Origin: Candidatus Midichloria mitochondrii IricVA
GTDB lineage: Bacteria; Pseudomonadota; Alphaproteobacteria; Rickettsiales; Midichloriaceae
Direction: 5' to 3'
Length of the DNA: 32,000 nt
Assembly: GCF_000219355.1 (NCBI RefSeq)
Contig: NC_015722.1
Location: forward strand, 660,001 to 692,000
The notes under the pieces: model-generated
What the model saw: only the letters and a program-made list of their open reading frames with translations
Database searches by the model: none
What the model was told of the DNA's origin: nothing
Program-made: the position numbers and the translations under genes
Part shown: positions 1 to 23,865 of the stretch, piece by piece
Layout of the letters: each line of letters starts with the position of its first letter
Numbering within the stretch: position 1 is the first letter of the stretch

Positions 1-468
1 ATGTTTTGAATATGACTGTTGATGAGACAGCAGGATTTTTTTCAAATGTTCCATTAATTTTAGAAAAGGTAATGGCTTTAAAAGAAGTTGGTCTGGGATA
101 CATGAAAATTGGGCAATCCGCAACTACTCTCTCGGGCGGGGAAGCGCAGAGAATTAAGTTAGCGAAAGAACTTTCTAAAAAAATCAACCGGCCGTACTCT
201 TTATATACTTGATGAACCAACAACTGGGTTGCATATGCATGATATCCAAAAATTATTAGTTGTGCTACACAAATTAGTAGACGCAGAGAATACTGTAGTG
301 GTAATTGAACACAATTTAGATGTTGTTAAAACTGCTGATTATGTTGTAGATATAGGGCCAGAAGGAGGCAGTAAAGGTGGTGCTGTGGTTGTAACCGGAA
401 CTCCTGAGGAAATAATTTCAAGTAAAGAAAGTATAACTGGTAAGTATTTGAAGCCGCTCCTAATATAA
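1..468 (+). pseudogene. uvrA: Excinuclease ABC subunit A (UvrA), C-terminal part, entering from the left edge. The frame is broken by a 1-nt frameshift in an A7 run at 177-183.
   Basis: ORFs 6-212 and 229-468 together give the UvrA C-terminal ABC module: [24 protein letters not shown], then in the next frame [49 protein letters not shown]. With A6 instead of A7 at 177-183 the two parts join seamlessly. Confidence 0.85.
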
Positions 469-564
469 ATATATTTTTATATTTGCAAAGAAATACTTAA
501 AATGTAAAAATTTGTTATGGACTTTTTATAGCCCTATTGCTATAAGGTTCGTGACAATTTAAGT

Positions 565-639
565 TCCCCGGTAGCTCAGCGGTAGAGCAAGCGGCTGTTA
601 ACCGCTTGGTCGCTGGTTCGAGTCCAGCCCGGGGAGCCA
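565..639 (+). tRNA. tRNA-Asn (anticodon GTT), with CCA encoded
   Basis: Acceptor stem is TCCCCGG/CCGGGGA and the D arm is GCTC-AGCGGTA-GAGC. Anticodon stem-loop is AGCGG-CTGTTAA-CCGCT. The T arm is GGTTCGAGTCC and the 3' end is GCCA. Confidence 0.9.
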
Positions 640-659
640 CCTTTTTTTATCTGTGCCGT

Positions 660-1250
660 ATGCTTTTTATAGTAAAAGATGTGGTGAGCGCCTTGTCTAG
701 GGCTGAGCCGGTTGTTTTACCTACAGATACGCTTTTTGCTTTATCGGTCGATGCAACTTCAGAGAAAGCTGTGTCAAATTTATTTGAGATTAAGAGCCGA
801 AAGTTAGAAAAAGCTCTCCCTGTCTTTGTTAGCTCATTCGAACAAGCTGAAAGGTTTTTTGAGTTTAATGATTTAGCAATGAAATTAGCAAAGAAATTCT
901 GGTCTGGACCTTTAACCTTGATTTTGAAGTTAAAAGGCAAACTAGCAAAAAATTTGTCCATATCCGAAAAAATTGCAGTGAGGATGCCTAGCAGTTCTTT
1001 GATTATGGAAATAATTAATAACTTTGGAAAACCAATTACGGGAACGAGTGCTAATCCATCGGGTAATAATGATATTTTCGATTATCAGGAGTTATTACTA
1101 ACTTTTAAAGATAAAGTGCCAATTATTGTGAATGGAGAGATACAGAAAAATGCCAAGCCTTCAACGGTTATAGATTGCTCAAATAATACTGTACAATTTT
1201 TAAGAGTTGGTGGTATAAGTGAGGATAGCATATTACGCCTAATCTCATGA
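660..1250 (+). CDS. tsaC: L-threonylcarbamoyladenylate synthase (YrdC/Sua5/TsaC family)
   Basis: YrdC-domain motifs are present: VVLPTDTLFAL, FEIKSRKLEKALPV, FWSGPLTLIL, AVRMPSS, TGTSANPSG and KPSTVID. I moved the start to the ATG at 660 because the tracked ORF start at 606 lies inside tRNA-Asn. Confidence 0.8.
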   Translation: MLFIVKDVVSALSRAEPVVLPTDTLFALSVDATSEKAVSNLFEIKSRKLEKALPVFVSSFEQAERFFEFNDLAMKLAKKFWSGPLTLILKLKGKLAKNLSISEKIAVRMPSSSLIMEIINNFGKPITGTSANPSGNNDIFDYQELLLTFKDKVPIIVNGEIQKNAKPSTVIDCSNNTVQFLRVGGISEDSILRLIS

Positions 1251-1411
1251 TTATGAAAAAGATAAGTATGTTTATTAGGACGCGCTAAAAAACCCTTCGG
1301 CGCCAATAGAGAATTGTGTAGTGAGCAAAAGAAATAATTTTTTCTGGAAATGGGTTCCCTGCAGCCAGCAAAACAAGTTGTTTTGATTCGATAAATAGAG
1401 AAGATCGGCGT

Positions 1412-2216
1412 TTGTTTATTGCCACTTCAATGTTCGAAACTGACAAAATTACTGGCCACGCTGCAAATTGTCTTAATGAGTGTTTTGATATTGTTCCTGT
1501 GCCTGATCCCTATCAACAAGCAGGGGTAACAAAACCTATATTTTACCTGCCTCTTTTGGTCAACTTAGATGAGTTTTTGAGGGCGCCAATAAAAGTTAAG
1601 GCCAAATAAAGTTTTTACTTTTGGATATTTTTCCTCATTAGAGAACCGAAAAGAACAAGATAATCTAATTCAAGCTTTTAAGATAGTTTAATCTAAAAGA
1701 CCCGATATGCTCTATTCATTTCAGCAAGGCATGCAACTACTAGCTTATACAAGAATATAATGCGCTTTGTAGCTGAGAATAAGTTAAACAATGTTAAGGT
1801 TGAGATAAAAAACAAGGATAATGAGGAACATTTAGCTGATTTTCAGAAAATAGATGCGTACGTAAGCCCTTCAAGAGGCGGAGGATTTTCAATTATTCCA
1901 AGAAAAAGTTTGGCACTTGGTGTTCCGACGATTATAACGGATAAATACAGCGCAGAAAACTATATGTAACTCTCGTCTAGTTAGTTGTGTAGAGTCATAT
2001 AAAAATAAAAAGGCAAATTATGAGTCTATGCCTAATGATGACTGGGGTAATTACTATGACTTTAGGGTAGAGAATCTAGCTCAAGCCATGATAGGTATGT
2101 GTGACCATTATGACAGGTAGTTAAGAAAAGCTCAAAAGATGAGAGAATGGTATGCACAGTACAATATTAATGTTTTAGAGGGGTTATATTTAAATTTTAT
2201 CAATCCTAAAAAATAA
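1412..2216 (+). pseudogene. Family-1 (GT4-like) glycosyltransferase, degraded by multiple stops and frameshifts
   Basis: Fragments in different frames carry GT1 signatures: FE..DIVPVPDPYQQAGVTKPIFYLP; EPKRTR..NLIQAFKIV; DAYVSPSRGGGFSIIPRKSLALGVPTIITD; VENLAQAMIGMCDHYDR. No intact ORF exceeds 70 aa. Confidence 0.65.
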
Positions 2217-2615
2217 TTTTAGGTAATAAAAATGAAATTACTACTGATTATTTAATGACCAAAGATGTAGAGTTATACAAGAAGCTTCTGCGGTTAAAAA
2301 ATAGGATAATTATTTGTGTACCGAAGGTTTCTACTCTCTTGAAGAGCAACCAAAGAAGGGAGCGGATGATTAGGTAAATCGGTATCTTGATATTGCCATT
2401 ACGAGCTATAGTAAAAAAGCTTTAAGTGATTATTGACATATATTGTTAATAGGTATACTCTTTACTTGGGGAGACTGCATATAACAGAGATAACTCAGCA
2501 AAGCATTATCTCCTTAGCAGCCTTCTTAAAGAATTAACCCGGTCATTTATAATGATTTATGCCCTTGTTGTGGAGTCTTTTTACGATAGACGGTATATTT
2601 GAGCTTTCATCTATG

Positions 2616-3117
2616 TTAACCCCAGTTTGAGGTAAGTTTAAGGAAATTATCTGATATGGTCTTAAAGAAGCTGTGTAACCATTAAGTTTCTCTCAATTTC
2701 ACGATAAATAAGAAAAGTGGTTCCTCTAGTAGAAATATTTTGTTTGATTGATGATTTTTGCAAGCGACAACTCACGTACCAAAGAGATCCTTAAGAAACT
2801 CGCAGATACAAAGGAAACGAGAGTCTAGGATGATGCTTTCCGAAGTTATAACGATCCTCGTTTTGCTTCATTTGAGGGCATCACCGGATTCAAAGATTCT
2901 TACCTAAACTGTGTTCAAACCTCTCTCAGAGAGGAATTGCCGAAGCTTATCAGCTACAATCGCTTTGTTGAGCTGATTGCAAGACGCAGTCATCACGTTG
3001 GTCATTCTGCCGAATTGCTGCAAAGGCCGTTCACGCTGACTTCGGGTAAATACAGACGATCGAGCCGTTGTCGAAAAACTGACTCAATATTTGACGGGCC
3101 TTCTATTCGGAGATCGC
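2616..3117 (+). mobile_element. IS982-family element, copy A: left inverted repeat present, internally deleted and 3'-truncated, transposase frame destroyed
   Basis: It starts with the terminal repeat TTAACCCCAGTTTGAGGTAAG. It aligns by eye with copy C (22919-23865) through ..GGCCTTCTATTCGGAGATCG. About 150 bp after ..GAATTGCTG(C/T)AAAGG are missing, as is everything 3' of 3117. Confidence 0.8.
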
Positions 3118-3236
3118 TCCTTTATCGGTATTTGCAGGTTTATCAGGGCTACTGTCCTCGTTAACTTTCAACCTTATCGTTTTTAGGCGCTCCTTCTCCC
3201 CCTCCAGGACCTCCTACATTACTTGGCCCACCCGAA

Positions 3237-5336
3237 CTACCAGAACCCCCCGCCGCCCCCTTTACTTATCCACTTGTCTGGAGTATCAAAAGCTTGGGCT
3301 ACGCCGTCCCCTCTTCCTTCACCAACACCTTCGTCAAACTTAGCCAACATTCGTTTAGCCATATCAGCTCCTCTGTTTACAGTATCAACCACTTTAGCAG
3401 TTACTCCTCCATCAACATGAGCAATTGCGGCCATCGCTCCTTGATATGCTGCGGCTTTAGCTTGGCGAAGCTTAACTGCCACAAAACTATTTCTATACTG
3501 GTTAAGACCAGAGGCATACATCTCTTTTGTCGGCATTCTCCCTTGTCCTATTATAATATCAGCCATTTCAGGAGTTTTTTCCATTATTGAGAAAAACACT
3601 ATGGACATCAGCAAAAATGCGAAGAAATTAATAGCATTAATAGAACTGAGGAGCTCCGATGCAGACTGCGGGTACCAAAACTTTAAGTCTACGATAGTTA
3701 AGCCAAGAATTTCCAACTTCCAAACAGTTTGCCAACATACTCTAAAGAAGAGTAGAGCCTGTATTTGTCCAAAAATTAATTTTACCATTAAGCCAATACT
3801 AGTGGCTAGCATGATATATAATATACCTGTAGAAACAACTTGTTTAATCCACATATCGAATAACTCTTTCGTAATTTGGAAGAGCAACATCACGATGAAT
3901 ATAGGGGCCACAATTAGCAACAAAGCAAATTGTATAAGCATTAATAAATAAAGAACCAACGACTTGAGCATCGATACAATTATAAGATAAAATCCAACAT
4001 AAATGCATGGAATCCAATATAATTTCCACTCGTAAAACATTAATGACCAAGTTTTTGCATGTACTGGTATCTTAGTTAGTATTTTTAACAAAACATCATA
4101 AATAGTTAAGGGAGAAGCCTTATCAGGTAGGTAGTATATGGGAGAATTAGGGTTACCATCATAATATAAAGTGGCTCTAATAATCATGTCCGCTATATCT
4201 CTTGCTCCATCTCTGCACAGGCTAAATAAATATGTATTAAAAAAGTTCCAGCTTTGATCAGAGATAAGAGTTGCAACAATTGAAAACTTAAATAATCGTA
4301 CTATCAGCTCCCTTTGACTCACTTTAATGGTGCCCAGAGCAAACATCACCCCTGTTATTACTATGTATAACAATAAAAACGCCCTTATTATTGTGATAAG
4401 CTTGAGGTTATGAACTATATTCTCATAAAGGGACTTGTTAACTCTGTCTATTTGCTTGTTAAACATATTAATAGTTCTTTCTATGAAGCCTTTTTCCGTA
4501 TAGACTCCATTAGTTACTGTAACATTGTAAACCCCAGAGTTGTCTTGGTAATAACCATCTTGGATTTTAAAAAACAATCTTCCTCTTACTATGTATTCCC
4601 CCCCTTCCTTATGCACATCCTTAACACAGACGCTTTCATCGCAGTACTGTGTTGCGTCTAGCTCAAAATAATATTCATACTCTGGCTCTTCATCGAAAGC
4701 AGAAGAGTTGATCCTTGCTCCTTTGACGGTAGGTGCTACCCTAAAAGTTCTAAAAAGGCTTTTGGGTAAATTAATCGCTGCACTTAAGTCATTTGGGTTG
4801 TAATAGCTCTTTCCCCCAGAATCCGCCATAGCAATTAATCCATATAAGCCCCAACCGTTCTTTAAGGTGCAAGGCAATTTATCAATATCGCTATTTACGA
4901 CTTTTCCGCCTGGCAAACAAATCCTATCTTGCTTTTTGGTCGGACTACAATCTAATAATTCGCACTCGTTAACGTCCAATCCTTCTATATCTCCCCATGG
5001 GCTCCAACTGCCAGTAATCGTTAATTTCAACCTATTTTGGGTTGGGTTTTTAGGGTCTGGCGGATTGCCAAGAGTATATAGTCCGCTATCAATCCAAGGG
5101 GCAATTTGCTGTTTTTTTGGATTAACACGTAACAGTTTGGTAACCCCTTGAGTAGTAATACCTTCATCAGGATTAGCGGGTACTGTAATTGAGCCTCCCA
5201 ACCCGAAATCATCTGCTGCGATACATGCTCCTCCACCAGCAGCTGACGCTATTAGGATTAATTTATAGCTTATAGCTAAGATAAAAAAAATAGTTCTGAA
5301 GGCTGATAAGGATAACTTATAAAGATTATGATTCAT
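3237..5336 (-). CDS. virB6: VirB6/TrbL-family T4SS inner-membrane protein, paralog 3. It has a signal peptide, a soluble N-terminal domain of about 330 aa and a polytopic domain. The C-terminus is possibly truncated by a frameshift, with the alternative end at 3161.
   Basis: There is a signal-like N-terminus and multiple TM helices. The conserved block LLFQITKELFDMWIKQVV is shared with the other two paralogs. The block RAFLLLYIVITGVMFALG..QRELIVRLFKFSIVATLISDQSWNFFNTYLF closely parallels paralog 2. A strong SD (GGAGGGAG) precedes the ATG at 5336. Confidence 0.85.
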   Translation of the reverse strand: MNHNLYKLSLSAFRTIFFILAISYKLILIASAAGGGACIAADDFGLGGSITVPANPDEGITTQGVTKLLRVNPKKQQIAPWIDSGLYTLGNPPDPKNPTQNRLKLTITGSWSPWGDIEGLDVNECELLDCSPTKKQDRICLPGGKVVNSDIDKLPCTLKNGWGLYGLIAMADSGGKSYYNPNDLSAAINLPKSLFRTFRVAPTVKGARINSSAFDEEPEYEYYFELDATQYCDESVCVKDVHKEGGEYIVRGRLFFKIQDGYYQDNSGVYNVTVTNGVYTEKGFIERTINMFNKQIDRVNKSLYENIVHNLKLITIIRAFLLLYIVITGVMFALGTIKVSQRELIVRLFKFSIVATLISDQSWNFFNTYLFSLCRDGARDIADMIIRATLYYDGNPNSPIYYLPDKASPLTIYDVLLKILTKIPVHAKTWSLMFYEWKLYWIPCIYVGFYLIIVSMLKSLVLYLLMLIQFALLLIVAPIFIVMLLFQITKELFDMWIKQVVSTGILYIMLATSIGLMVKLIFGQIQALLFFRVCWQTVWKLEILGLTIVDLKFWYPQSASELLSSINAINFFAFLLMSIVFFSIMEKTPEMADIIIGQGRMPTKEMYASGLNQYRNSFVAVKLRQAKAAAYQGAMAAIAHVDGGVTAKVVDTVNRGADMAKRMLAKFDEGVGEGRGDGVAQAFDTPDKWISKGGGGGFW

Positions 5337-5353: not shown

Positions 5354-6817
5354 TTACTCAATACCACTATTATTCGAATCGCGATCTGATCCTTTAGACT
5401 GTTCTTGAGTGTTCTCTTCCTCTTTCCTATTATTAGCATTAATATCGTCCAGCCTTAAATTTTCACCGAATGGAGCTCTTCTTGCTTTATCATACTGCCC
5501 ACCCACACGATCCTTGCCGCCTCTACCACTTGCGCGCGCGCCCGCTCTTCCAGCCCCTGCTGAGCCACCCCTAGGCGATCCAAAAGCTGATAACAAAGCA
5601 TTGACAGGATTAGCATTAGCTGCAGCTTCGGAAAGATTTAACCCCATAAAGCTTGATGTTACTATCATATTGGCAAGGGAAGAAGAAAAATTACAGAAAA
5701 CATACATCGCCTGCCCTATAATCAAGAAAAAGATAGCGCTTGCTAAAGAATTAATTGGAATCCCAAAAGAATCAGTTGGTGGATGGTGAGCACTTGCCAA
5801 GCTCATGTATCCAGGAATTAAACAGACATCAAAGCCTAAAATAGAAAAACCTAATATGCATACTTTACAAGCCGTAAATCCTAAAGTCACATATAATGCT
5901 GTCATTAATAGGGTATTTAAAAATGCAACAGCCGTAATGACAAACACTGGTTGTAACGCAAATGATAGCATTTGTTTAAACCAAGAATCAAAAAACTGCT
6001 TTGTAAAAGGAAATAATATAAAACAAATAAATATAGGGCCTACTAAGAAAAGGATACCTAAAGATATGATAGATACTAAATACAACATTAAAACTTTTGC
6101 AATACAAATTGCATACATCCCAATTGCAAATATGATCACTATTGCAATTAAAAAACCGAACAAATTAGCACATATTAGAGATGCTATTTTTACCCACACT
6201 TGAGCGCTAAATAATTGTTTAAATGGCGCGTCAAATACAGAAAATATAATCGAAGGATTATTAAAGAATTCTTGCTCATTAAATTGCATAGAACCATTCA
6301 TTGAGCTGGCTATTCTCACGATTAATTCCAACGAGCCAACAGTAAACAAATTAAATAAGTAATTGTTGAAAAAATCCCAACTTCTATCAGAAATCAATAC
6401 AGTAACTATACTTATTTTTGCTATTCTAATTATGGCCTCTTTTTGAGTCGTCTGCGCAAGTCCAGTAATAAAACTAATACCAGTAAATGCTATATAAAGA
6501 ACTAACAAAGCTCTAACAGCAGTAATAAAATTAGTATCTGTAACAAAGTGCTTAAACGTTTTTGGCACAATACCATTTCTAGGATTATTTGGGTCATCTT
6601 TAAATAAGTAATCAACTATTTCTTGTAGAATCTCAGCTAAACTCCCAGAAACTGGTGCTGCTTCCACTTCTTTTTCTACAGCAATATAATACTCACCAGT
6701 TGTGTTATAGGCTGCATATTTTGCCGGATTAGTAATATTATTCAAAGTACTTTGACAAGGCATCGGGAATAACCTTGGGCACGTTGGCTCTAACCCCTTA
6801 CTATAGTCCAGGTCCAA
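5354..6817 (-). CDS. virB6: VirB6/TrbL-family T4SS protein, paralog 2, membrane and C-terminal portion. It is in frame with ORF 6827-8293 across a single TAG.
   Basis: It carries RALLVLYIAFTGISFITG..KEAIIRIAKISIVTVLISDRSWDFFNNYLF and ILFPFTKQFFDSWFKQML, plus a Gly/Arg-rich tail. The tracked start is a TTG with no SD, and there is no signal peptide. Confidence 0.8.
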   Translation of the reverse strand: MDLDYSKGLEPTCPRLFPMPCQSTLNNITNPAKYAAYNTTGEYYIAVEKEVEAAPVSGSLAEILQEIVDYLFKDDPNNPRNGIVPKTFKHFVTDTNFITAVRALLVLYIAFTGISFITGLAQTTQKEAIIRIAKISIVTVLISDRSWDFFNNYLFNLFTVGSLELIVRIASSMNGSMQFNEQEFFNNPSIIFSVFDAPFKQLFSAQVWVKIASLICANLFGFLIAIVIIFAIGMYAICIAKVLMLYLVSIISLGILFLVGPIFICFILFPFTKQFFDSWFKQMLSFALQPVFVITAVAFLNTLLMTALYVTLGFTACKVCILGFSILGFDVCLIPGYMSLASAHHPPTDSFGIPINSLASAIFFLIIGQAMYVFCNFSSSLANMIVTSSFMGLNLSEAAANANPVNALLSAFGSPRGGSAGAGRAGARASGRGGKDRVGGQYDKARRAPFGENLRLDDINANNRKEEENTQEQSKGSDRDSNNSGIE

Positions 6818-6826
6818 TCTTTTATT

Positions 6827-8293
6827 CTAAAAACACGTTACCTTTTCCTTTCCAACAGCTGGAAAAAAATCTGATTTTATATCAACATCTTGCCAGTCTA
6901 TGTTGGGTGAATCTGGTAAATATTCTCCGGAGCTGTTCACGGGAATTATTGCATATTGCAGCCTCTCGCCTGAGCGAAAATTACAACCACGCCATTTTAT
7001 TGTGACATCTATCCCTCCTAAGTTATCAGCATAGTCAGTGGTGCTCCCCATGCCAACTGGCACATTAGGGTTGTCATAATGCCTTAATGCCAATCTAATA
7101 TACTTATCCGAAAACCCTTGCAGAACCCCAGAAAATGATAACATTCTTACCCTCTCTTTGCTCCGCTTAGTTGGATTATCAGATTCTGTGGGATCTGTAA
7201 TCCATGACAGTATAGACATTCCAAGAGAGCTGCCATAATCGCTTTCAAAAGTTGTAATATTATAGTCACTCGATAATGGCCTAGTTTCTGACCAGATACG
7301 TCCCTTCAGTCCATACCAATCCAGGGCATTATTGGCGTTATTTACTGCCTCAATATTACTATAATCAATTGAGGTTGGTATCCCATCTTTATCTCTACTT
7401 AATATATTGATTTCGGCTAACTTAAACTGAGATCCTGTCAACTCTATAGATTTCCAATTGCCAAAAAAACTGCCACCAAAAGCTTCCGGTTTCCAAACTT
7501 GTAGGCTTTGATTAAAAGGAGAACTGTACCCTATTGAATAAGGTTGAAACATATAATTACCGCCATATCGTAGCTCCAGATAATCTCCATCTTTGATATC
7601 TATTTCAGTATCAGTCCAATAATAGTTTCTTGCATGCCAATTCTCTTTATCATTTGTGATTTTTCCGTTAACTGTAGCACCATCAGGCCATTTGCTTTTG
7701 AGCATAGAGTTCCACACCGGAGTCAATTTCATTGTCTTAAAGCCACAAAGATATATAGAGCTACCAATTTCACTTTGCCCACTCTCATCCAGCATCTTGA
7801 TTCTGATCTTTTGATTCTTAGTGGGATCAATTACTAGATCAGATTGATAATAATTATAATTTGCACTTGAAATCCCACTAGTACCACAAGCCGCCTTTGT
7901 AGTAATTTCATCTTTCCAAACTACGTTGTGATTTTCATCATAATCTCTGTACTTGCTTTTAAAAAAATCGCCCTTTTGACAAGCTGCAATACAAGAATCT
8001 ATGATGTCAGCATTCAAATCATCACCAACCCCATTGATTGCACTATTATAAGCATCTTTATCCTTCCTGAGATCGGCATCATTTTTACCGCGCGCAAAAG
8101 AGTTACACTCATTTTGACATCTCTTATAGCATATCTGACCGATAGGCCTAACTATAACTAATTTTCGATCTTCGTCGCCGAACTCCCAACTATATACGCA
8201 ATCAGAATATAGCGCGGCATTGGCATTCGTATAGAAAATGCTTAACAACGTAAGGATAAAAAGGGTGATAAATGACGAATTGAGATGAAGCAT
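6827..8293 (-). CDS. Secreted Cys-rich soluble protein, probably the detached N-terminal periplasmic domain of VirB6 paralog 2
   Basis: Signal peptide is MLHLNSSFITLFILTLLSIFYTNANA, and no further TM segment follows. Several Cys clusters are present (CYKRCQNECNSF, DSCIAACQKG). It ends at a TAG 9 nt upstream of, and in frame with, ORF 5354-6817, and it sits inside the virB operon. Confidence 0.7.
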   Translation of the reverse strand: MLHLNSSFITLFILTLLSIFYTNANAALYSDCVYSWEFGDEDRKLVIVRPIGQICYKRCQNECNSFARGKNDADLRKDKDAYNSAINGVGDDLNADIIDSCIAACQKGDFFKSKYRDYDENHNVVWKDEITTKAACGTSGISSANYNYYQSDLVIDPTKNQKIRIKMLDESGQSEIGSSIYLCGFKTMKLTPVWNSMLKSKWPDGATVNGKITNDKENWHARNYYWTDTEIDIKDGDYLELRYGGNYMFQPYSIGYSSPFNQSLQVWKPEAFGGSFFGNWKSIELTGSQFKLAEINILSRDKDGIPTSIDYSNIEAVNNANNALDWYGLKGRIWSETRPLSSDYNITTFESDYGSSLGMSILSWITDPTESDNPTKRSKERVRMLSFSGVLQGFSDKYIRLALRHYDNPNVPVGMGSTTDYADNLGGIDVTIKWRGCNFRSGERLQYAIIPVNSSGEYLPDSPNIDWQDVDIKSDFFPAVGKEKVTCF

Positions 8294-8299
8294 AATCTA

Positions 8300-10900
8300 T
8301 CAACTACCACCCCCAGGCATTCCACCACCGCCACCTCCTCCACTACCAGCAGCACTAATCCCTTCACGCACTTTATCTCCGCCACCACCTTCTTCTTTAC
8401 CACCTTCACCTCCGCCCTTGTTGACTCCACCACTCTCATTTGCAGCAGCACTGGCACCACCAGCCGCTCCACCACCACTACCAGCTGCAGCCATGATTGC
8501 TGCGATATTAATACTTCCTTTGGCCATACTTCCTAAATCCTGCACTCCTGTTAATATAGCTAAGAAGCCCGAGACCGATCCAAGAAATAAATAGAAGAGA
8601 AAGGCAAATAACATTAATTTTAAAACAGCATCAAGATAGGTACCAACGAAGATATCTTTTAGGATGGTAAATTTGCCAAGAGGACCTAAATCAAGAGTTT
8701 CAGTCAGAGTACCATTAATATTCCCAAGATTAGCACCACAAGGATCTGCTCCCACTGCTTCATAAGTAGTACAAAATACAGAATCAACTCCAGCACAAGC
8801 TTTCTTTATGTCATTTCTATTGTTGACTAGGTCTATATCACCAAAAAATACCGAATCAAAAGTTGCAAGCATCAAGGCTATAAAAGCGAATAATAATGCA
8901 GGATATAAAATATAACCAATTATCAATTGCATCCATTTTTGGAAAATGCTTTTTGTGTAATCAAATAAAGCGAAACAAATAATTATAGGAGAGACTAAAA
9001 CCAATATTGTAAGTACAAACATTGATAGTATGAAAATATGTATAAATTTAAATATTACTAGTAATAACATTTGGCAATATATAAACGATACGACACCAAG
9101 CAGGAATCCTTCCATACTAACCAAAATTGCTGCTGATATTATCCATACTCCTATAAGACCTGCAATAGTGTACTTACATGAGCCCAGATTCAGGTAATTC
9201 AACAACTTACAGTCTATCAGATCCCAAACAGTGATTTTTACTTTATCCTTAAAGCCCATCGTAGGCTGTAAAGCTTGATTTAGTATATAACCAGAAGAAG
9301 CGTCCCCTGTTCCACTTGATTGTATGGCAGCAGATACCGGTATTTCCCTTTCTCCAAACAGATTAAAGCCCTCGAATTGATATTGGCAAAAACCTATTGG
9401 ATCATTATCATTCTGCGCGCCCATAAAAAACCCTGCTATCTCACTAGAAGCAGATAAGAGCGCTGGATACAACCCCACCTTCTCTCCATTTTTAACTTCA
9501 TACCAAGCATTACCAGTTGCGAAATAAAGAACTAGCCCAAACTTTACTACATACATTATTAACTCGCCTCTTTGCGGTAACTCAGCTGCAGTGATAATCT
9601 TTATACCAACTAAGGTGACATACAATACTAGTACCGCATACACTATCTGTTTTAAACGCTCTTGAACAATTTGGAAAAACGGTTTTTGCCCATTAACATT
9701 CACTCCACTAGGCTCAATAAACACCTTCACCAATAAATCCTGCATACAACCAATTACCGTGCTAATTATATGCATGTCACTGCTTAAGAAATCCTTCACG
9801 TATTTCTTTTGAATCCCAAGCTCATCAGTATCCCGTAAGGATTTACCCAAAGCATTCAAATCACTTCGTCCGGTAATAAAATAATAGCACCTAGTATCTT
9901 GTAAGTAGACTTTTAAGAATTCATCTAAATCAAGATCATCAGCAGGGGGCGGCACATAGCTACACCCAATTCTTATTGGTAATAATGTATAAGGAGTAAC
10001 CACGCATAACTGTACCTTACCAACTCCAGATACAAATCTATAATACGCGTGATAATGCGCAGGGAGCTGGTACTTATCGTTATCAGATTTTTTTGCAGCC
10101 AATATAAGCTCCTGCCTTTTTGGACTTCCTTGGCCTCCAGCTCTGCACCTGTTCAGGCCGCTCCAAAATCTATCCCATCCCGATACATAATGCACCACCA
10201 CCTTACCAACCATATCTTTTTTGGCATATTTGGCCGCATCGCCTGCACAATAAGGAGAAGCTGCTCCCATATATCCCCAAGTCCTTCCAATTAAGGCTTC
10301 ATCTTCCTCTACTCCTGATTTTAAAGTTGTGCCAGTGTCTGGGTCATAGAAAGGATCACAATGATAATAAAAAGGTACATCCACTGCAGTAAGCGCATTT
10401 GGATGAGTATTTAATACTAAGTTTGACCCCTTTTCTTCACATTGTACCCATCCTTGCTCAAAATTTATATATTCATGAGGAGCTACTATATAGGCATTGG
10501 TACAAAGATCTATCATGATTACATATTCTATACCCATAGCAAGTAAGGCAAATATAGTACCAAACGGCACAGCAGTAAGCATGGCCGCATAAACCACTCC
10601 TCTCCCCACGTTTGTTATTAGAGCAAGGCCACCAACACCCCCATCTTTACAGCTATTTTTATTTTTGCTGAGCATTGTTGGAATACAGGTATTGTTAAAA
10701 GCTCCATATTCCCAAGGCCATGTAGCTTTCCCACTTGTAAAGCAATTGTCTATGTTACCTAAATAACCAAATCCAGAATCAGTCACTGAACGAGATTCAA
10801 ATTCAATCATAGAGTCAAATGCAAGTGCTCTGCCATTTAACATTAAAATGGGGAGCATTATAATAAAAAAAAGTTGGAATTTTTTTATTATGTGTTGCAT
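8300..10900 (-). CDS. virB6: VirB6/TrbL-family T4SS inner-membrane protein, paralog 1 (866 aa)
   Basis: It has an N-terminal signal or TM segment and many TM helices. The conserved block is ALFDYTKSIFQKWMQLIIGY. The long Gly-rich tail reads GSGGGAAGGASAAANESGGVNKGGGEGGKEEGGGGDKVREG...GGGGGGGMPGGGS. Its start lies 2 nt after the virB4 stop, with a GAAGGAA SD. Confidence 0.85.
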   Translation of the reverse strand: MQHIIKKFQLFFIIMLPILMLNGRALAFDSMIEFESRSVTDSGFGYLGNIDNCFTSGKATWPWEYGAFNNTCIPTMLSKNKNSCKDGGVGGLALITNVGRGVVYAAMLTAVPFGTIFALLAMGIEYVIMIDLCTNAYIVAPHEYINFEQGWVQCEEKGSNLVLNTHPNALTAVDVPFYYHCDPFYDPDTGTTLKSGVEEDEALIGRTWGYMGAASPYCAGDAAKYAKKDMVGKVVVHYVSGWDRFWSGLNRCRAGGQGSPKRQELILAAKKSDNDKYQLPAHYHAYYRFVSGVGKVQLCVVTPYTLLPIRIGCSYVPPPADDLDLDEFLKVYLQDTRCYYFITGRSDLNALGKSLRDTDELGIQKKYVKDFLSSDMHIISTVIGCMQDLLVKVFIEPSGVNVNGQKPFFQIVQERLKQIVYAVLVLYVTLVGIKIITAAELPQRGELIMYVVKFGLVLYFATGNAWYEVKNGEKVGLYPALLSASSEIAGFFMGAQNDNDPIGFCQYQFEGFNLFGEREIPVSAAIQSSGTGDASSGYILNQALQPTMGFKDKVKITVWDLIDCKLLNYLNLGSCKYTIAGLIGVWIISAAILVSMEGFLLGVVSFIYCQMLLLVIFKFIHIFILSMFVLTILVLVSPIIICFALFDYTKSIFQKWMQLIIGYILYPALLFAFIALMLATFDSVFFGDIDLVNNRNDIKKACAGVDSVFCTTYEAVGADPCGANLGNINGTLTETLDLGPLGKFTILKDIFVGTYLDAVLKLMLFAFLFYLFLGSVSGFLAILTGVQDLGSMAKGSINIAAIMAAAGSGGGAAGGASAAANESGGVNKGGGEGGKEEGGGGDKVREGISAAGSGGGGGGGMPGGGS

Positions 10901-10902
10901 AA

Positions 10903-13323
10903 CTATTCCTTCAATTCTTTTAATCTGCTATTAAACTTCGGTAACCAAACATTTGGATCATCCCCATATTCCTTTCTTACTTCGTCCAGCACAATCACCG
11001 TATCTGCTCTACCTGATAAAACATTTATTATGTCTGGCATACTAGACAAATCTATACGCGCTACTACAGCATTATTACCTTGCTTCACTAAAAAGAATCT
11101 GCTCCCTGGATCAGTAGTTTTGATTAATTGATATTCTCTTTCACTAAGCATAAATGCTGTCTTATACACTTCAGTAGCTTTTAGGTTAGGAAGAAAGATT
11201 TGGGTTGCTGTTTGTTGTATTAAGGTATCGCTTATCGCGCTTTTGCTTGCATCTTCCACGCTCTGAGTTGCAAAAATCACAAAAGTATTAAGTTTACGCA
11301 GAACTTTTAACCAGTCTTTAATTTTGGGAGCAAATATTGGGTTATCAATTAGCGCCCAGGCCTCATCCAAAACTATCATACTTGGAGTACCATCCAGCGA
11401 TAAGTTAATTTTGTGAAAAATATAACTTAAAACAGGCCCAAGACTCGCCTTATCTTTAAGTAATTCGGCCATCTCGAAACCAAAAATATTAGCCTCGTCA
11501 AAATCTATGGTGTCGGTAGGATTATCAAAGATTTTTGCATGTGAACCACCGCTGTGCCACATAGCCATTCTGCTTGCAAGGCTCCCTGGTCCTTCCAACC
11601 CTAAAAATGGAGCAATGTTGCTTAAGCCTCTATTTGATTTATCAAGCTTGTAGTTACCATTAATTGATGTATTTAGTGCAGCGATATCTTCGGCGGTTAT
11701 GACTTCACCATTAACCGATACTAGCTGTTTTAGCCAATCTAATAAGAACGTTCTATTTTCACCCGTATCTGGTAATAATAAAGGATTTAAATTACAAGCC
11801 TGTGCTGGGTCTATTACTGTATAATGTCCATTCAGCGCTCTGATAAAAATTTCAGCGCCGCGGTCCTTATCAAAAAAGAATAGCCTGCACTTAAACTTTT
11901 GCGCCTGAGCACACAAAAAATTCATCATCACGGTCTTACCAGAGCCCGTGGGCCCTATGATGGTAGTATGCCCAACGTCGCGAAGGTGAAAATTGAAGTA
12001 ATAAGGAGTACCAGAAGTAGTGTCAAGAACAGTAACCGCGTCTCCCCAGTGATTTTTCTTAGGTCTACCTGTTGGGTAATTATGCAATGAATTAAATGAC
12101 GCCAGATTCATGGTATTTATTGTAGAGGACCTAACAATGAAATCAAAATTTCCAGGTAATTGAGCCCAAAATGCTGGCTCCATATTAATTTTTTCTCTAA
12201 CCCCGATACCTCCTGTATTTGTCAATTCTACAGCTGACATAGATAAAATATTTTCAAGTTCTTTTGGACTATCAGTCAAACACATTACGGTTAAATGATG
12301 CGTACCAAAGGCTATTTCTCCTCCCATTGCTTTATCGAGCGCTTCACTAATTTCCATGATCTGAGAGACAGCTTTATCGCCTGCTTGAATCATCCTATTT
12401 TGCTGCAACTGCATTCTGTTTATCGATGCTTGTCTATTAGCAAACTGAAAAGATTGAGTGATGACAAACTCAAAAGGCATACGTAAGAAGGAATCCAGCA
12501 TGCCAGCCCAGGTTTTTGGTCCATATTCTTTGACACTCACAATCCCAGCAAATTTACTTTTACCATTTTGTAATTTTGCTTCAATAGCGCGAGAACCAAA
12601 GTATAACCTTTGTCCACCAATTGTAGAATTCATATTATAGGGGGTGAATAATATCTTTGATTCTTGGCCACAGTTCACTATTTTAGCAAAAAATTCTGCG
12701 GGTTCTGAGTAATGTTTATCTCCAACTTTTTCGATACCAAGAATTCTTGCATCGTATTCTCTTAAAGAATTTACAACACGGCCCGTCGCTTCTTCCAATT
12801 GTTCATAAGCTCCCCAGAGTGGTTTGTACCATTCCTTACCATAGGATGCACTGATGAAACTAAATAATTTATCAAATACTGAGCTTTTTGAGCTAATTCC
12901 CTTTCTTATAATTGATATATAAAGTTCATTTATATAAGCTCTTCTAGTTTGATGGCGTTTACACCATTTTTGATCAAGATAACTCGCAAAGCCCTCTGGC
13001 ATATCAATATTATAATAACCTTCAGGATAAGCTTGATGCTCCTTTCTTATGATATGAAAATATAAAGCAATATTATTATCACTCATACCTTTAAAAAGCA
13101 GATTTCTAATGGTTTTTTTTATATCCAAGTCCTCATCATCTGCGGTTTCAAAAGAAAAGCCTCCTACTTTTACCACCTGTACTAACTGGTTATTTCTTGT
13201 ATAAACTGTAGTATCATTAAAATGATTAATATAAGGTATAAAGCCACTTACTGGATATTCGTTCTGGGCAATATATTGTCTTTCTATTTTAGTGCGTAAA
13301 AACTTTACCATGTTAGCAACCAA
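10903..13323 (-). CDS. virB4: T4SS ATPase VirB4
   Basis: The protein is 806 aa. Walker A is IIGPTGSGKTV and the Walker B-like motif is SMIVLDEAWALID, followed by FATQSVEDA. It lies immediately downstream of virB3. The start is TTG at 13323 or ATG at 13311. Confidence 0.93.
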   Translation of the reverse strand: MVANMVKFLRTKIERQYIAQNEYPVSGFIPYINHFNDTTVYTRNNQLVQVVKVGGFSFETADDEDLDIKKTIRNLLFKGMSDNNIALYFHIIRKEHQAYPEGYYNIDMPEGFASYLDQKWCKRHQTRRAYINELYISIIRKGISSKSSVFDKLFSFISASYGKEWYKPLWGAYEQLEEATGRVVNSLREYDARILGIEKVGDKHYSEPAEFFAKIVNCGQESKILFTPYNMNSTIGGQRLYFGSRAIEAKLQNGKSKFAGIVSVKEYGPKTWAGMLDSFLRMPFEFVITQSFQFANRQASINRMQLQQNRMIQAGDKAVSQIMEISEALDKAMGGEIAFGTHHLTVMCLTDSPKELENILSMSAVELTNTGGIGVREKINMEPAFWAQLPGNFDFIVRSSTINTMNLASFNSLHNYPTGRPKKNHWGDAVTVLDTTSGTPYYFNFHLRDVGHTTIIGPTGSGKTVMMNFLCAQAQKFKCRLFFFDKDRGAEIFIRALNGHYTVIDPAQACNLNPLLLPDTGENRTFLLDWLKQLVSVNGEVITAEDIAALNTSINGNYKLDKSNRGLSNIAPFLGLEGPGSLASRMAMWHSGGSHAKIFDNPTDTIDFDEANIFGFEMAELLKDKASLGPVLSYIFHKINLSLDGTPSMIVLDEAWALIDNPIFAPKIKDWLKVLRKLNTFVIFATQSVEDASKSAISDTLIQQTATQIFLPNLKATEVYKTAFMLSEREYQLIKTTDPGSRFFLVKQGNNAVVARIDLSSMPDIINVLSGRADTVIVLDEVRKEYGDDPNVWLPKFNSRLKELKE

Positions 13324-13325
13324 TC

Positions 13326-13616
13326 TTAATAGACGTCATAAGAATTTGCTCCATGGAACAATCTATTTTTACTCCGAGAACACTTTTCTGCCCTAACCTT
13401 AAAAAGCTCTATAAATAACGGTTCTTTTGAGCAAAGATAATATCCTAAAGCATGTATAGGAAACATTGAGACTAAATATTTAAAATTGGATGTACTGATA
13501 TACAATAACATACATGCCATACCATTTAGTATCGCAAAAGTATAGCTCACTCCAAAAAGCATCGGAGGACGCGTTAATCCTACAAAAAGTGGATCTGCCT
13601 TTACTACACCACTCAT
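13326..13616 (-). CDS. virB3: T4SS protein VirB3
   Basis: The protein is 96 aa. It has the motif DPLFVGLTRPPMLFGVSYTF followed by two hydrophobic segments. GAAGGAG lies upstream of the ATG, and the gene is directly followed by virB4. Confidence 0.88.
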   Translation of the reverse strand: MSGVVKADPLFVGLTRPPMLFGVSYTFAILNGMACMLLYISTSNFKYLVSMFPIHALGYYLCSKEPLFIELFKVRAEKCSRSKNRLFHGANSYDVY

Positions 13617-14619: not shown

Positions 14620-15240
14620 ATTAACCTCAGTTTGACGTAAGGAGTAGGCCCGCAAGCCTATTTTCCATGAGATATACCGGGTTTGAAGACATAAGCCAAG
14701 AGCCCTGAGAAAAAGAGGTTTTGGCCAAGAAATTGTTTGGCGAGCGATGCCTTTAAAGATCTTATTACGGCTAGTACGTAAGTTATGACAAACCTTCCAG
14801 CTTTTTGTTGAGTCAACGCACCTGTTTGTTTCCCTTTGCAGCAATTCAGCAGAATGACCAACGGGGTGACCGCGTCTCGCATCAGCTCAACAAAGCGATT
14901 GTAGCTGACAAGCTTCGGCAATTCCTCTCTGAAAGAGATTTGAACACAGTTTAGGTAAAAATCTTTGAATCCGGTAATGCCCTCAAATGAAACAAAACGA
15001 GGATCGTTATAACTTCGGAAAGCATCATCCCAGACTCTCGTTCCCTTTGTCTCTGCGAGTTTCTTAAGGATCTTTGGTACGTGAGTTGTCGCTTGCAAAA
15101 ATCATCAATCAAACAAAATATCTCTACTAGGGAAACCACTTTCCTTATTTATCGTGAAATTGAGAGAAACTTAATGGTTACACAGCTTCTTTGAAACCAT
15201 ATCAGATAATTTCTTTAAAACTTACCTCAAACTGGGGTTA
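14620..15240 (-). mobile_element. IS982-family element, copy B: both terminal inverted repeats retained, with a 328-bp internal deletion (MITE-like derivative)
   Basis: The ends are TTAACCTCAGTTTGACGTAAG (14620-) and CTTACCTCAAACTGGGGTTA (-15240). It is collinear with copy C except for the loss of the copy-C interval between GGCGTCGCTC (23408-17) and GGCATCGCTC (23736-45). The junction GAGCGATGCC is at 14742-14751. Confidence 0.85.
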
Positions 15241-20306: not shown

Positions 20307-20642
20307 ATGAATATATTAGGCATAAGAAGTTGTGACATATCAGTTAAGTTGATGCTCTGGCTTAGCATTGCAGTTTTGATTATAGCTGCAAAAAATGCTT
20401 GGGCCGCAGATAATGACATGACTATGGTTACAAATGTCATGTGTGCTGCAATCAACCAATTGACTGGACCAATCGGAAGGGCTATTACGATAATTATAGT
20501 AATTTCTCTTGGTATAATGTTACTCCTTGGCAAGGTGACCTGGGGTGTTGCAATAGCTCTTGCGGTTGGAATGGGAGTTATCTTTGGAGCAAGGGATGTA
20601 GTTAATATCTTATCTGGTGGAACTGGCGCTATATGCTCTTAA
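20307..20642 (+). CDS. virB2: VirB2/TrbC-like T4SS pilin subunit
   Basis: The protein is 111 aa. It has a long leader ending ..AAKNAWA|ADND. Two hydrophobic helices follow (GPIGRAITIIIVISLGIMLLLG and VTWGVAIALAVGMGVIFGA), separated by a short turn. This is the typical TrbC/VirB2 architecture and size. A GAGGA SD lies 4 nt before the ATG. Confidence 0.7.
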   Translation: MNILGIRSCDISVKLMLWLSIAVLIIAAKNAWAADNDMTMVTNVMCAAINQLTGPIGRAITIIIVISLGIMLLLGKVTWGVAIALAVGMGVIFGARDVVNILSGGTGAICS

Positions 20643-22931: not shown

Positions 22932-23865
22932 GGTAAGTTTTAAAGAAATTATCTGATATGGTTTTAAAGAAGCTGTGTAACCGTTAGGTTCTTCTCAATT
23001 TCACGATAAATAAGGAAAGTGGTTTCCCTAGTAGAAATATTTTGTTTGATTGATGATTTTTGCAAGCGACAACTCACGTACCAAAGATCCTTAAGAAACT
23101 CGCAGAGACAAAGGGAACGAGAGTCTGGGATGATGCTTTCCGAAGTTATAACGATCCTCGTTTTGTTTCATTTGAGGGCATTACCGGATTCAAAGATTTT
23201 TACCTAAACTGTTTTCAAATCTCTCCCAGAGAGGAATTGCCGAAGCTTATCAGCTACAATCGCTTTGTTGAGCTGATGCGAGACGCGGTCATTCCGTTGG
23301 TCATTCTGCTGAATTGCTGTAAAGGGAAACAAACAGGTACGTTGACTCAACAAAAAGCTGGAAGGTTTTGTCATAACTTACGTATTAGCCGTAATAAGGT
23401 CCTTAAAGGCGTCGCTCAGCGTGGGAAAACGTCGACCCGGATGGTTCTTTGGCCTCAATGATCAAGGAGAGATTATGTCATTCACACTGACTTCGGGTAA
23501 TACAGATGATCGAGCCGTTGTCGAGAAACTGACTCAATATTTGACAGGCCTTCTATTCGGAGATCGGTGGTATATAAGCAAAAACACTGAGCAATCAAGG
23601 TATTGAGCTCATCACACGGCTTAAATGAAAAACAAAACCCGGCTTGCGGCTTTTAAACAACTGCTTCTTGCAGGGCGTGGATTGATTGAAACAGCCATCG
23701 GACAATTGAAAGAGATTTGCCAAATCCAGCGCCACGGCATCGCTCGCCAAACAATTTCTTGGCAGACCTCTTTCTCAGGGCTCTTGGCTTATGTCTTCAA
23801 ACCCAATATATCTCATGGAAAAATAGGCTCACGGGCATACTCCTTACGTCAAACTTGAGAGGTTA
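22919..23865 (+). mobile_element. IS982-family element, copy C: near full length (about 947 bp), with the transposase broken into at least 4 frames
   Basis: The left inverted repeat is AACCCCAGTTTGAGGTAAG and the right is CTTACGTCAAACTTGAGAGGTTA. The encoded pieces are MVSLVEIFCLIDDFCK.., ..LISYNRFVELMRDAV.., ..CHNLRISRNKVLKGVAQRGKTS.., ..NDQGEIMSFTLTSGNTDDRAVVEKLTQ.LTGLLFGDR.YISK.. and ..LIETAIGQLKEICQI..GLLAYVFKP. All are typical of IS982 transposases. Confidence 0.85.

Follow-up and report, generated by a model that had tools for sequence, protein, structure and literature searches.

The middle of three tandem VirB6/TrbL-family genes in a type IV secretion system (T4SS) operon of Candidatus Midichloria mitochondrii IricVA appears as two genes in the reference assembly (1,183,732 bp, CP002130.1). 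This split very probably consists of homopolymer miscalls in an assembly obtained by 454 pyrosequencing, which would have originated in base-calling or assembly and not in the sequenced bacteria. Three runs lying within 27 nt would each have been called one base short (A5 to A4, T6 to T5 and A5 to A4): the first miscall would shift the frame, the second would make a TAG and the third would return the frame, so that the two halves appear to be parted by a single in-frame stop. The real gene would be a 980-codon VirB6/TrbL paralog, in which a Sec signal peptide precedes ~530 amino acids (aa) of periplasmic domain, followed by the polytopic TrbL core and, at the C-terminus, a hydrophilic tail. 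Such a gene is nothing unusual among the expanded VirB6 paralogs that typify Rickettsiales T4SS operons. All coordinates are positions in the window, i.e. the whole stretch of 32,000 nt considered here (contig NC_015722.1, positions 660,001 to 692,000), in which the split gene lies on the minus strand (Table 1).

The split gene and the anatomy of its lesion

Two open reading frames (ORFs) were found in a common frame, one of 488 aa with an ATG start (8293-6827, hereafter the N piece) and one of 487 aa with a TTG start (6817-5354, the C piece). As the initial annotation had stated, translation of 8293-5354 displayed one internal stop only (...GKEKVTCF*NKRLDLDYSKG..., TAG at 6829-6827), and no other stop or frameshift was encountered within the 2.9 kb of the split gene. 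The curated annotation of IricVA lists the halves as separate genes, MIDI_RS03480 and MIDI_RS03475, each designated 'type IV secretion system protein' (bioRxiv 10.1101/2022.05.16.490919, supplement). By inspection, the first residues of the N piece form a signal sequence of the Sec type (MLHLNSSFITLFILTLLSIFYTNANA/AL, the slash marking the cleavage site), and Pfam and NCBIfam searches with this piece gave no match. The C piece carries the TrbL/VirB6 core and is 100% identical to a protein of Candidatus Midichloria mitochondrii named TrbL/VirB6. Signal peptide and core had both been proposed initially and were recovered here. The same holds for the TTG start at 6817, for which no Shine-Dalgarno sequence was detected (best anti-Shine-Dalgarno duplex -1.9 kcal/mol). 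All other genes of the operon had been credited with such a sequence; this stood for virB3 (-8.3 kcal/mol) and for the first (-5.7) and third (-11.9) VirB6 paralogs but not for virB4, which lacks one like the TTG start. An in-frame ATG of the C piece, at 6763, is preceded by a weak AAGG.

A nonsense mutation was among the explanations proposed initially, but the stop does not stem from a base substitution: it is located inside a frame-shifted patch of 27 nt, bounded by three homopolymer runs that are each contracted by one base. The window was one base short at all three runs in comparison both with the Midichloria of the tick Hyalomma scupense (Midichloria sp. HscuESP, locus L001, ~90% nucleotide identity) and with the syntenic locus L002. 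The frame appears continuous across the junction because the three contractions sum to -3 and the original frame is back after 27 nt; the TAG exists only in the shifted frame.

Once the missing bases are put back, the patch reads G-N-V-F-F-R-I-K. In a MAFFT (fast mode) alignment of 45 full-length homologues, this motif was among the most conserved of the periplasmic domain: its G and R were present in 95% and 93% of the homologues, respectively, at full occupancy, where the window displays V and N. In the form G-x-[LIV]-F-F-R-I-K it is nearly invariant across these distant homologues. The next ~45 residues contain a conserved pair of Cys, a Tyr and an invariant Gly, and the break therefore lies inside the domain and not at its boundary.

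Table 1. Features of the window (strand relative to the window; A4, T5, etc. designate homopolymer lengths)
Feature	Position	Strand	Remarks
Middle VirB6/TrbL-family paralog of three	5354..8293	-	980 codons when intact; its division into N piece (MIDI_RS03480) and C piece (MIDI_RS03475) is very probably false
Sec-type signal peptide, residues 1-26 (...TNANA/AL)	8216..8293	-	By inspection of the translation; conserved in P0005 and L004-L012
TrbL/VirB6 polytopic membrane core, PF04610	5897..6505	-	C piece residues 105-307; 80.3 bits versus a cut-off of 25.9
First homopolymer run, coding-strand A4	6843..6846	-	A5 in all other assemblies
Second homopolymer run, coding-strand T5, whose final T opens the TAG	6829..6833	-	T6 in all other assemblies, L001 and L002
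In-frame TAG stop codon, very probably artefactual	6827..6829	-	Absent from nine independent loci
Third homopolymer run, coding-strand A4, after which the original frame resumes	6820..6823	-	A5 in all other assemblies
uvrA 3' end, apparently falsely frameshifted at the A7 run 177-183	1..468	+	A6 and an intact 957-aa UvrA in three other assemblies; internal control for the error type
Third VirB6 paralog, apparently with a wrong 3' end	3237..5336	-	Run 3246-3251 is C6 on the plus strand (G6 coding) versus C5 elsewhere
Upstream part of the operon	8300..13616	-	virB3 13616-13326, virB4 13323-10903, first VirB6 paralog 10900-8300

Independent assemblies of the species

An exact look-up of the VirB3 product yielded 18 contigs, and nine loci (L004-L012) span the junction. 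They belong to the complete genomes OY973614, OY973616 and OY973620, to the metagenome-assembled genomes JALDTF, JALDTG, JALDTM and JALDTL, and to the Logan assemblies SRR23565340 and SRR16767730. All nine displayed A5/T6/A5 at the junction (GGAAAGGAAAAAGGTAACGTGTTTTTTAGAATAAAAAGATTGG) and were otherwise identical to the window in that stretch. Each encoded one unbroken VirB6 ORF of 980/981 aa containing ...GKEKGNVFFRIKRLDLDYSKG..., with PF04610 present. The architecture that the initial annotation had predicted for a fused product of ~980 aa (signal peptide, large periplasmic domain and transmembrane core) thus occurs as an intact ORF in independent assemblies.

Apart from the junction, the window hardly differs from these loci. 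Differences between its fused translation and the proteins of L004 and L010 were confined to six positions of the patch, and comparison with L010 and L011 over 11.5 kb uncovered one substitution and exactly three gaps, those of the junction. Contigs carrying the exact product of the neighbouring first VirB6 gene led to the same result, since all of them (14/14) displayed an adjoining call of 980 aa, or of 965 aa with an alternative start; the 965-aa call, found in L009, L011 and L019, starts 15 codons downstream, and the DNA there is identical to that of the 980-aa loci. None of L001-L012 carried a stop at the junction position. Sequencing error was one of four explanations listed initially, and it had been stated beforehand that the split would be refuted if independent data showed a sense codon at 6827-6829. 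By proxy, such a codon was encountered in the nine loci and the 14 contigs, and independent assemblies thus support this explanation. Exact-product look-ups of the truncated proteins of 488 aa and 463 aa in the assembly collection returned no record, and a metagenome scan with a 29-nt pattern adjoining the junction gave no match.

Error pattern of the reference assembly

The remainder of the window displayed differences of the same type. Positions 1-5253 differed from L014 and L015 by no substitution and by five one-base indels, all in homopolymers (window/other: A7/A6 at 177-183, T7/T6 at 642-648, A6/A5 at 1287-1292, A6/A5 at 2296-2301 and C6/C5 at 3246-3251); positions 1-2719 likewise differed from L016 by no substitution and by four of these five indels. 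Further homopolymer differences were located at ~14982 (G3/G2), ~16527 (C6/C8) and ~23369 (A4/A3). Together with the indels at 642-648, 1287-1292 and 2296-2301, they fall between genes or within insertion sequence (IS) remnants and pseudogenes. All 11 indels found were homopolymer-length differences.

Two of these indels affect genes other than the middle VirB6 paralog. One falls in uvrA (Table 1), and the curated protein list of IricVA contains UvrB and UvrC while UvrA is missing. The other alters the third VirB6 paralog, whose product is 699 aa long and ends with ...KGGGGGFW* in the window versus 724 aa ending with ...KGGGGGSGSSGGPSNVGGPGGGEGAPKNDKVES* in other assemblies. In Midichloria sp. 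HscuESP, uvrA was inverted relative to the window.

A recent comparison (PMC12282096, 2025) states that the reference consists of 454 data, and its authors flagged possible 454 artefacts. Each of their 11 new genomes displayed 170-191 deletions and 92-117 insertions (~270-300 indels) relative to this reference, along with 317-625 single nucleotide polymorphisms. An indel count that is near-constant across the new genomes is what errors specific to the reference predict.

The differences resemble known 454 homopolymer miscalls in that they amount to one base (once two) in single-base runs, in that indels largely outnumber substitutions and in that the affected genes (middle VirB6, uvrA and third VirB6 paralog) are intact elsewhere. 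They are unusual in that three of them, in short runs within 27 nt, sum to -3 and mimic a clean nonsense codon rather than an obvious frameshift. Some points weigh against miscalls as the origin of the split. The runs are only four to five bases long and thus less prone to 454 miscalls than long ones; three bases missed within 27 nt would suggest a locally poor or low-coverage stretch; and there is a slight probability that the sequence represents a genuine allele of the sequenced tick population.

Selection on the gene and decay of the operon elsewhere

The dN/dS ratio (omega) of the intact gene was 0.19 between L004 and L008, which represent two Midichloria lineages, and 0.15-0.16 for both halves in comparison with L001. 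The intact gene is under purifying selection and is a maintained functional component of the T4SS in intramitochondrial Midichloria. Neither dN/dS nor polarised changes are informative on the lesion itself, because conspecific intact copies share the substitutions concerned.

In line with this maintenance, the T4SS has been published as intact and transcribed in the symbiont of Ixodes ricinus, and as degraded in that of H. scupense. The whole virB3-virB4-VirB6 operon was found to be genuinely decayed in Midichloria sp. HscuESP (L001 4200-15000), in agreement with publications in which non-intramitochondrial Midichloria have lost the T4SS. Its virB4 displayed a deletion of ~0.8 kb and its middle VirB6 paralog ~19 indels of 1-78 nt. 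The two cases have in common the operon, the genus and broken VirB6 frames. They differ in that the indels of the H. scupense symbiont are not restricted to homopolymers and accompany ~10% nucleotide divergence, as in real decay, whereas the window displayed three homopolymer contractions only, encountered in no conspecific assembly.

Alternative explanations

The deposited sequence does contain the stop, and T4SS decay does occur in the genus, as documented by the ~19 indels and the virB4 deletion of the H. scupense symbiont. A genuine and very recent strain-specific lesion, i.e. three slippage deletions that made a newborn pseudogene in the reference lineage only, was considered on these grounds but is very unlikely. 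Three one-base deletions within 27 nt are implausible between strains that are otherwise 99.99% identical (one substitution per 11.5 kb), the lesion is common to no other assembly, and elsewhere the same reference assembly displayed homopolymer-only differences with zero substitutions. Amino-acid changes polarised between the branches of the window and of L001 (21 versus 32 for the gene and 28 versus 76 for its neighbours, small counts), slightly more frequent on the window branch for the gene than for its neighbours, may also be quoted in favour of a lesion, but they pre-date it, being present in L004 and L010. A true pseudogene is further contradicted by the lack of additional lesions, by the low omega and by a translation that equals the conspecific proteins outside the patch. 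Were the triple contraction nevertheless real, a single VirB6 paralog would have been inactivated or split only days before, the change would be segregating in one I. ricinus population, and the C piece might still be produced by reinitiation.

The split had also been read as a functional fission, in which the exported N piece would be free in the periplasm or at the surface while the C piece would be translated separately, by reinitiation at TTG 6817 or at ATG 6763, as a VirB6 of canonical size. Apart from the stop, both ORFs are indeed open, the C piece is by itself similar in size to classical VirB6 and contains the full TrbL core, and a start codon lies 9 nt past the stop, with the weak AAGG preceding the alternative ATG. 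The break, however, does not coincide with the limit of a domain: the nearly invariant periplasmic motif is destroyed by it, and the N piece is parted from the Cys pair, the Tyr and the invariant Gly that follow. In addition, the C piece lacks a Shine-Dalgarno sequence, no convincing split at the junction was encountered among 124 homologues, and the split was absent from all conspecific assemblies. A soluble secreted piece coexisting with a membrane piece is consequently extremely unlikely.

Recoding, finally, would yield a full-length product either by readthrough of the TAG or by a bypass of the patch through frameshifting or transcriptional slippage. The frame is the same on both sides of the stop, and simple readthrough would give a protein of 979 aa. 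Three separate shifts would be required to recover the conserved motif. The stop was conserved in no relative, being absent from all of L001-L012, and no suppressor tRNA was found in the window, whose tRNA scan gave only tRNA-Asn, tRNA-Phe and tRNA-Glu. Runs of four to five bases are far below the poly(A) lengths that give useful transcriptional slippage in endosymbionts. The probability left to recoding is almost negligible.

Operon organisation and protein family

VirB3 (PF05101) and VirB4 (PF03135) are encoded directly upstream on the same strand as the VirB6 genes, and this gene order was kept in L002 and L004-L012. In their intact form, the three tandem VirB6 genes encode proteins of 866, 980 and 724 aa; a further VirB6 is encoded elsewhere in the genome (MIDI_RS03930).

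The word-indexed protein search detected no match for the N piece and only four for the C piece. When phmmer was run exhaustively with the N piece, 124 homologues were uncovered; most of these are 850-1150 aa long and thus combine the N-terminal domain with a TrbL core. The best match, P0005, has 965 aa and 66% identity; its sequence across the junction is ...GKAQGNIFFRIKKLDSSYNSGLEPSC..., and its operon in L002 is syntenic with that of the window (virB3, virB4 and VirB6 genes of 854, 965 and 751 aa). The JGI protein P0002 aligned colinearly across the stop. The short homologues (P0007, P0016, P0022 and others) look like truncations at contig ends or by frameshifts, and none of the 124 gave a convincing case of a natural split at the junction. 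The fused state is ancestral.

The N-terminal periplasmic domain itself (window 6830-8293, homologues P0005-P0127) has no annotation as yet; the extended VirB6 proteins that carry it number at least 124. It is characterised by the motifs DC.[YF].W.FG, RP.G..CY.RC..EC, LQYA and G.[LIV]FFRIK and by the Cys pair. A sequence search of the PDB with this domain gave nothing significant.

Expanded VirB6 paralogs are known from the rvh T4SS of Rickettsiales, as RvhB6a-e in Rickettsia and VirB6-1 to -4 in Anaplasmataceae. The genes described here agree with these in being tandem VirB6/TrbL genes directly downstream of virB3-virB4 and in their length, each being far longer than the ~300-aa classical VirB6 due to extensions on both the N- and the C-terminal side of PF04610. 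They differ in number, with three tandem copies and one VirB6 elsewhere, and in an N-terminal domain that matched nothing in Pfam, NCBIfam or the PDB. With VirB6/TrbL of Agrobacterium tumefaciens they share the polytopic PF04610 core and an operon with VirB3 and VirB4; unlike classical VirB6, the middle paralog is about three times longer, and its core is preceded by a large periplasmic domain and a signal peptide that is cleavable. By family membership, the intact gene product presumably is a subunit of the inner-membrane channel, like other VirB6 proteins.

Some further elements were noticed in the window. An ORF of 111 aa (20307-20642, plus strand), ~7 kb from the operon, matched a gene of L004 called as PF04956 (TrbC/VirB2), and was regarded as a VirB2-like pilin paralog. 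Two transposase fragments (14658-15098 on the minus strand and 23060-23461 on the plus strand) are near-duplicates that both start with MQATTHVPKILKKLAETKG..., and L004-L006 begin with homologous ORFs (window ~23,600) that carry DDE_Tnp_1_3. Further short fragments lie close by. These IS remnants flank the tRNA-Phe/tRNA-Glu region.

Consequences for the reference and for VirB6 counts

Read filtering, annotation transfer and counts of intact versus pseudogenised T4SS genes still make use of the M. mitochondrii reference. MIDI_RS03480 and MIDI_RS03475 should be merged, and newer assemblies (e.g. OY973614) are preferable. Gene-content comparisons, pseudogene tallies and paralog counts are affected by the present record, in which one VirB6 figures as two entries, uvrA is missing and the third paralog is 25 residues short. 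As biology the split would be unimportant, because it would correspond neither to a split VirB6, nor to a free secreted T4SS domain, nor to readthrough.

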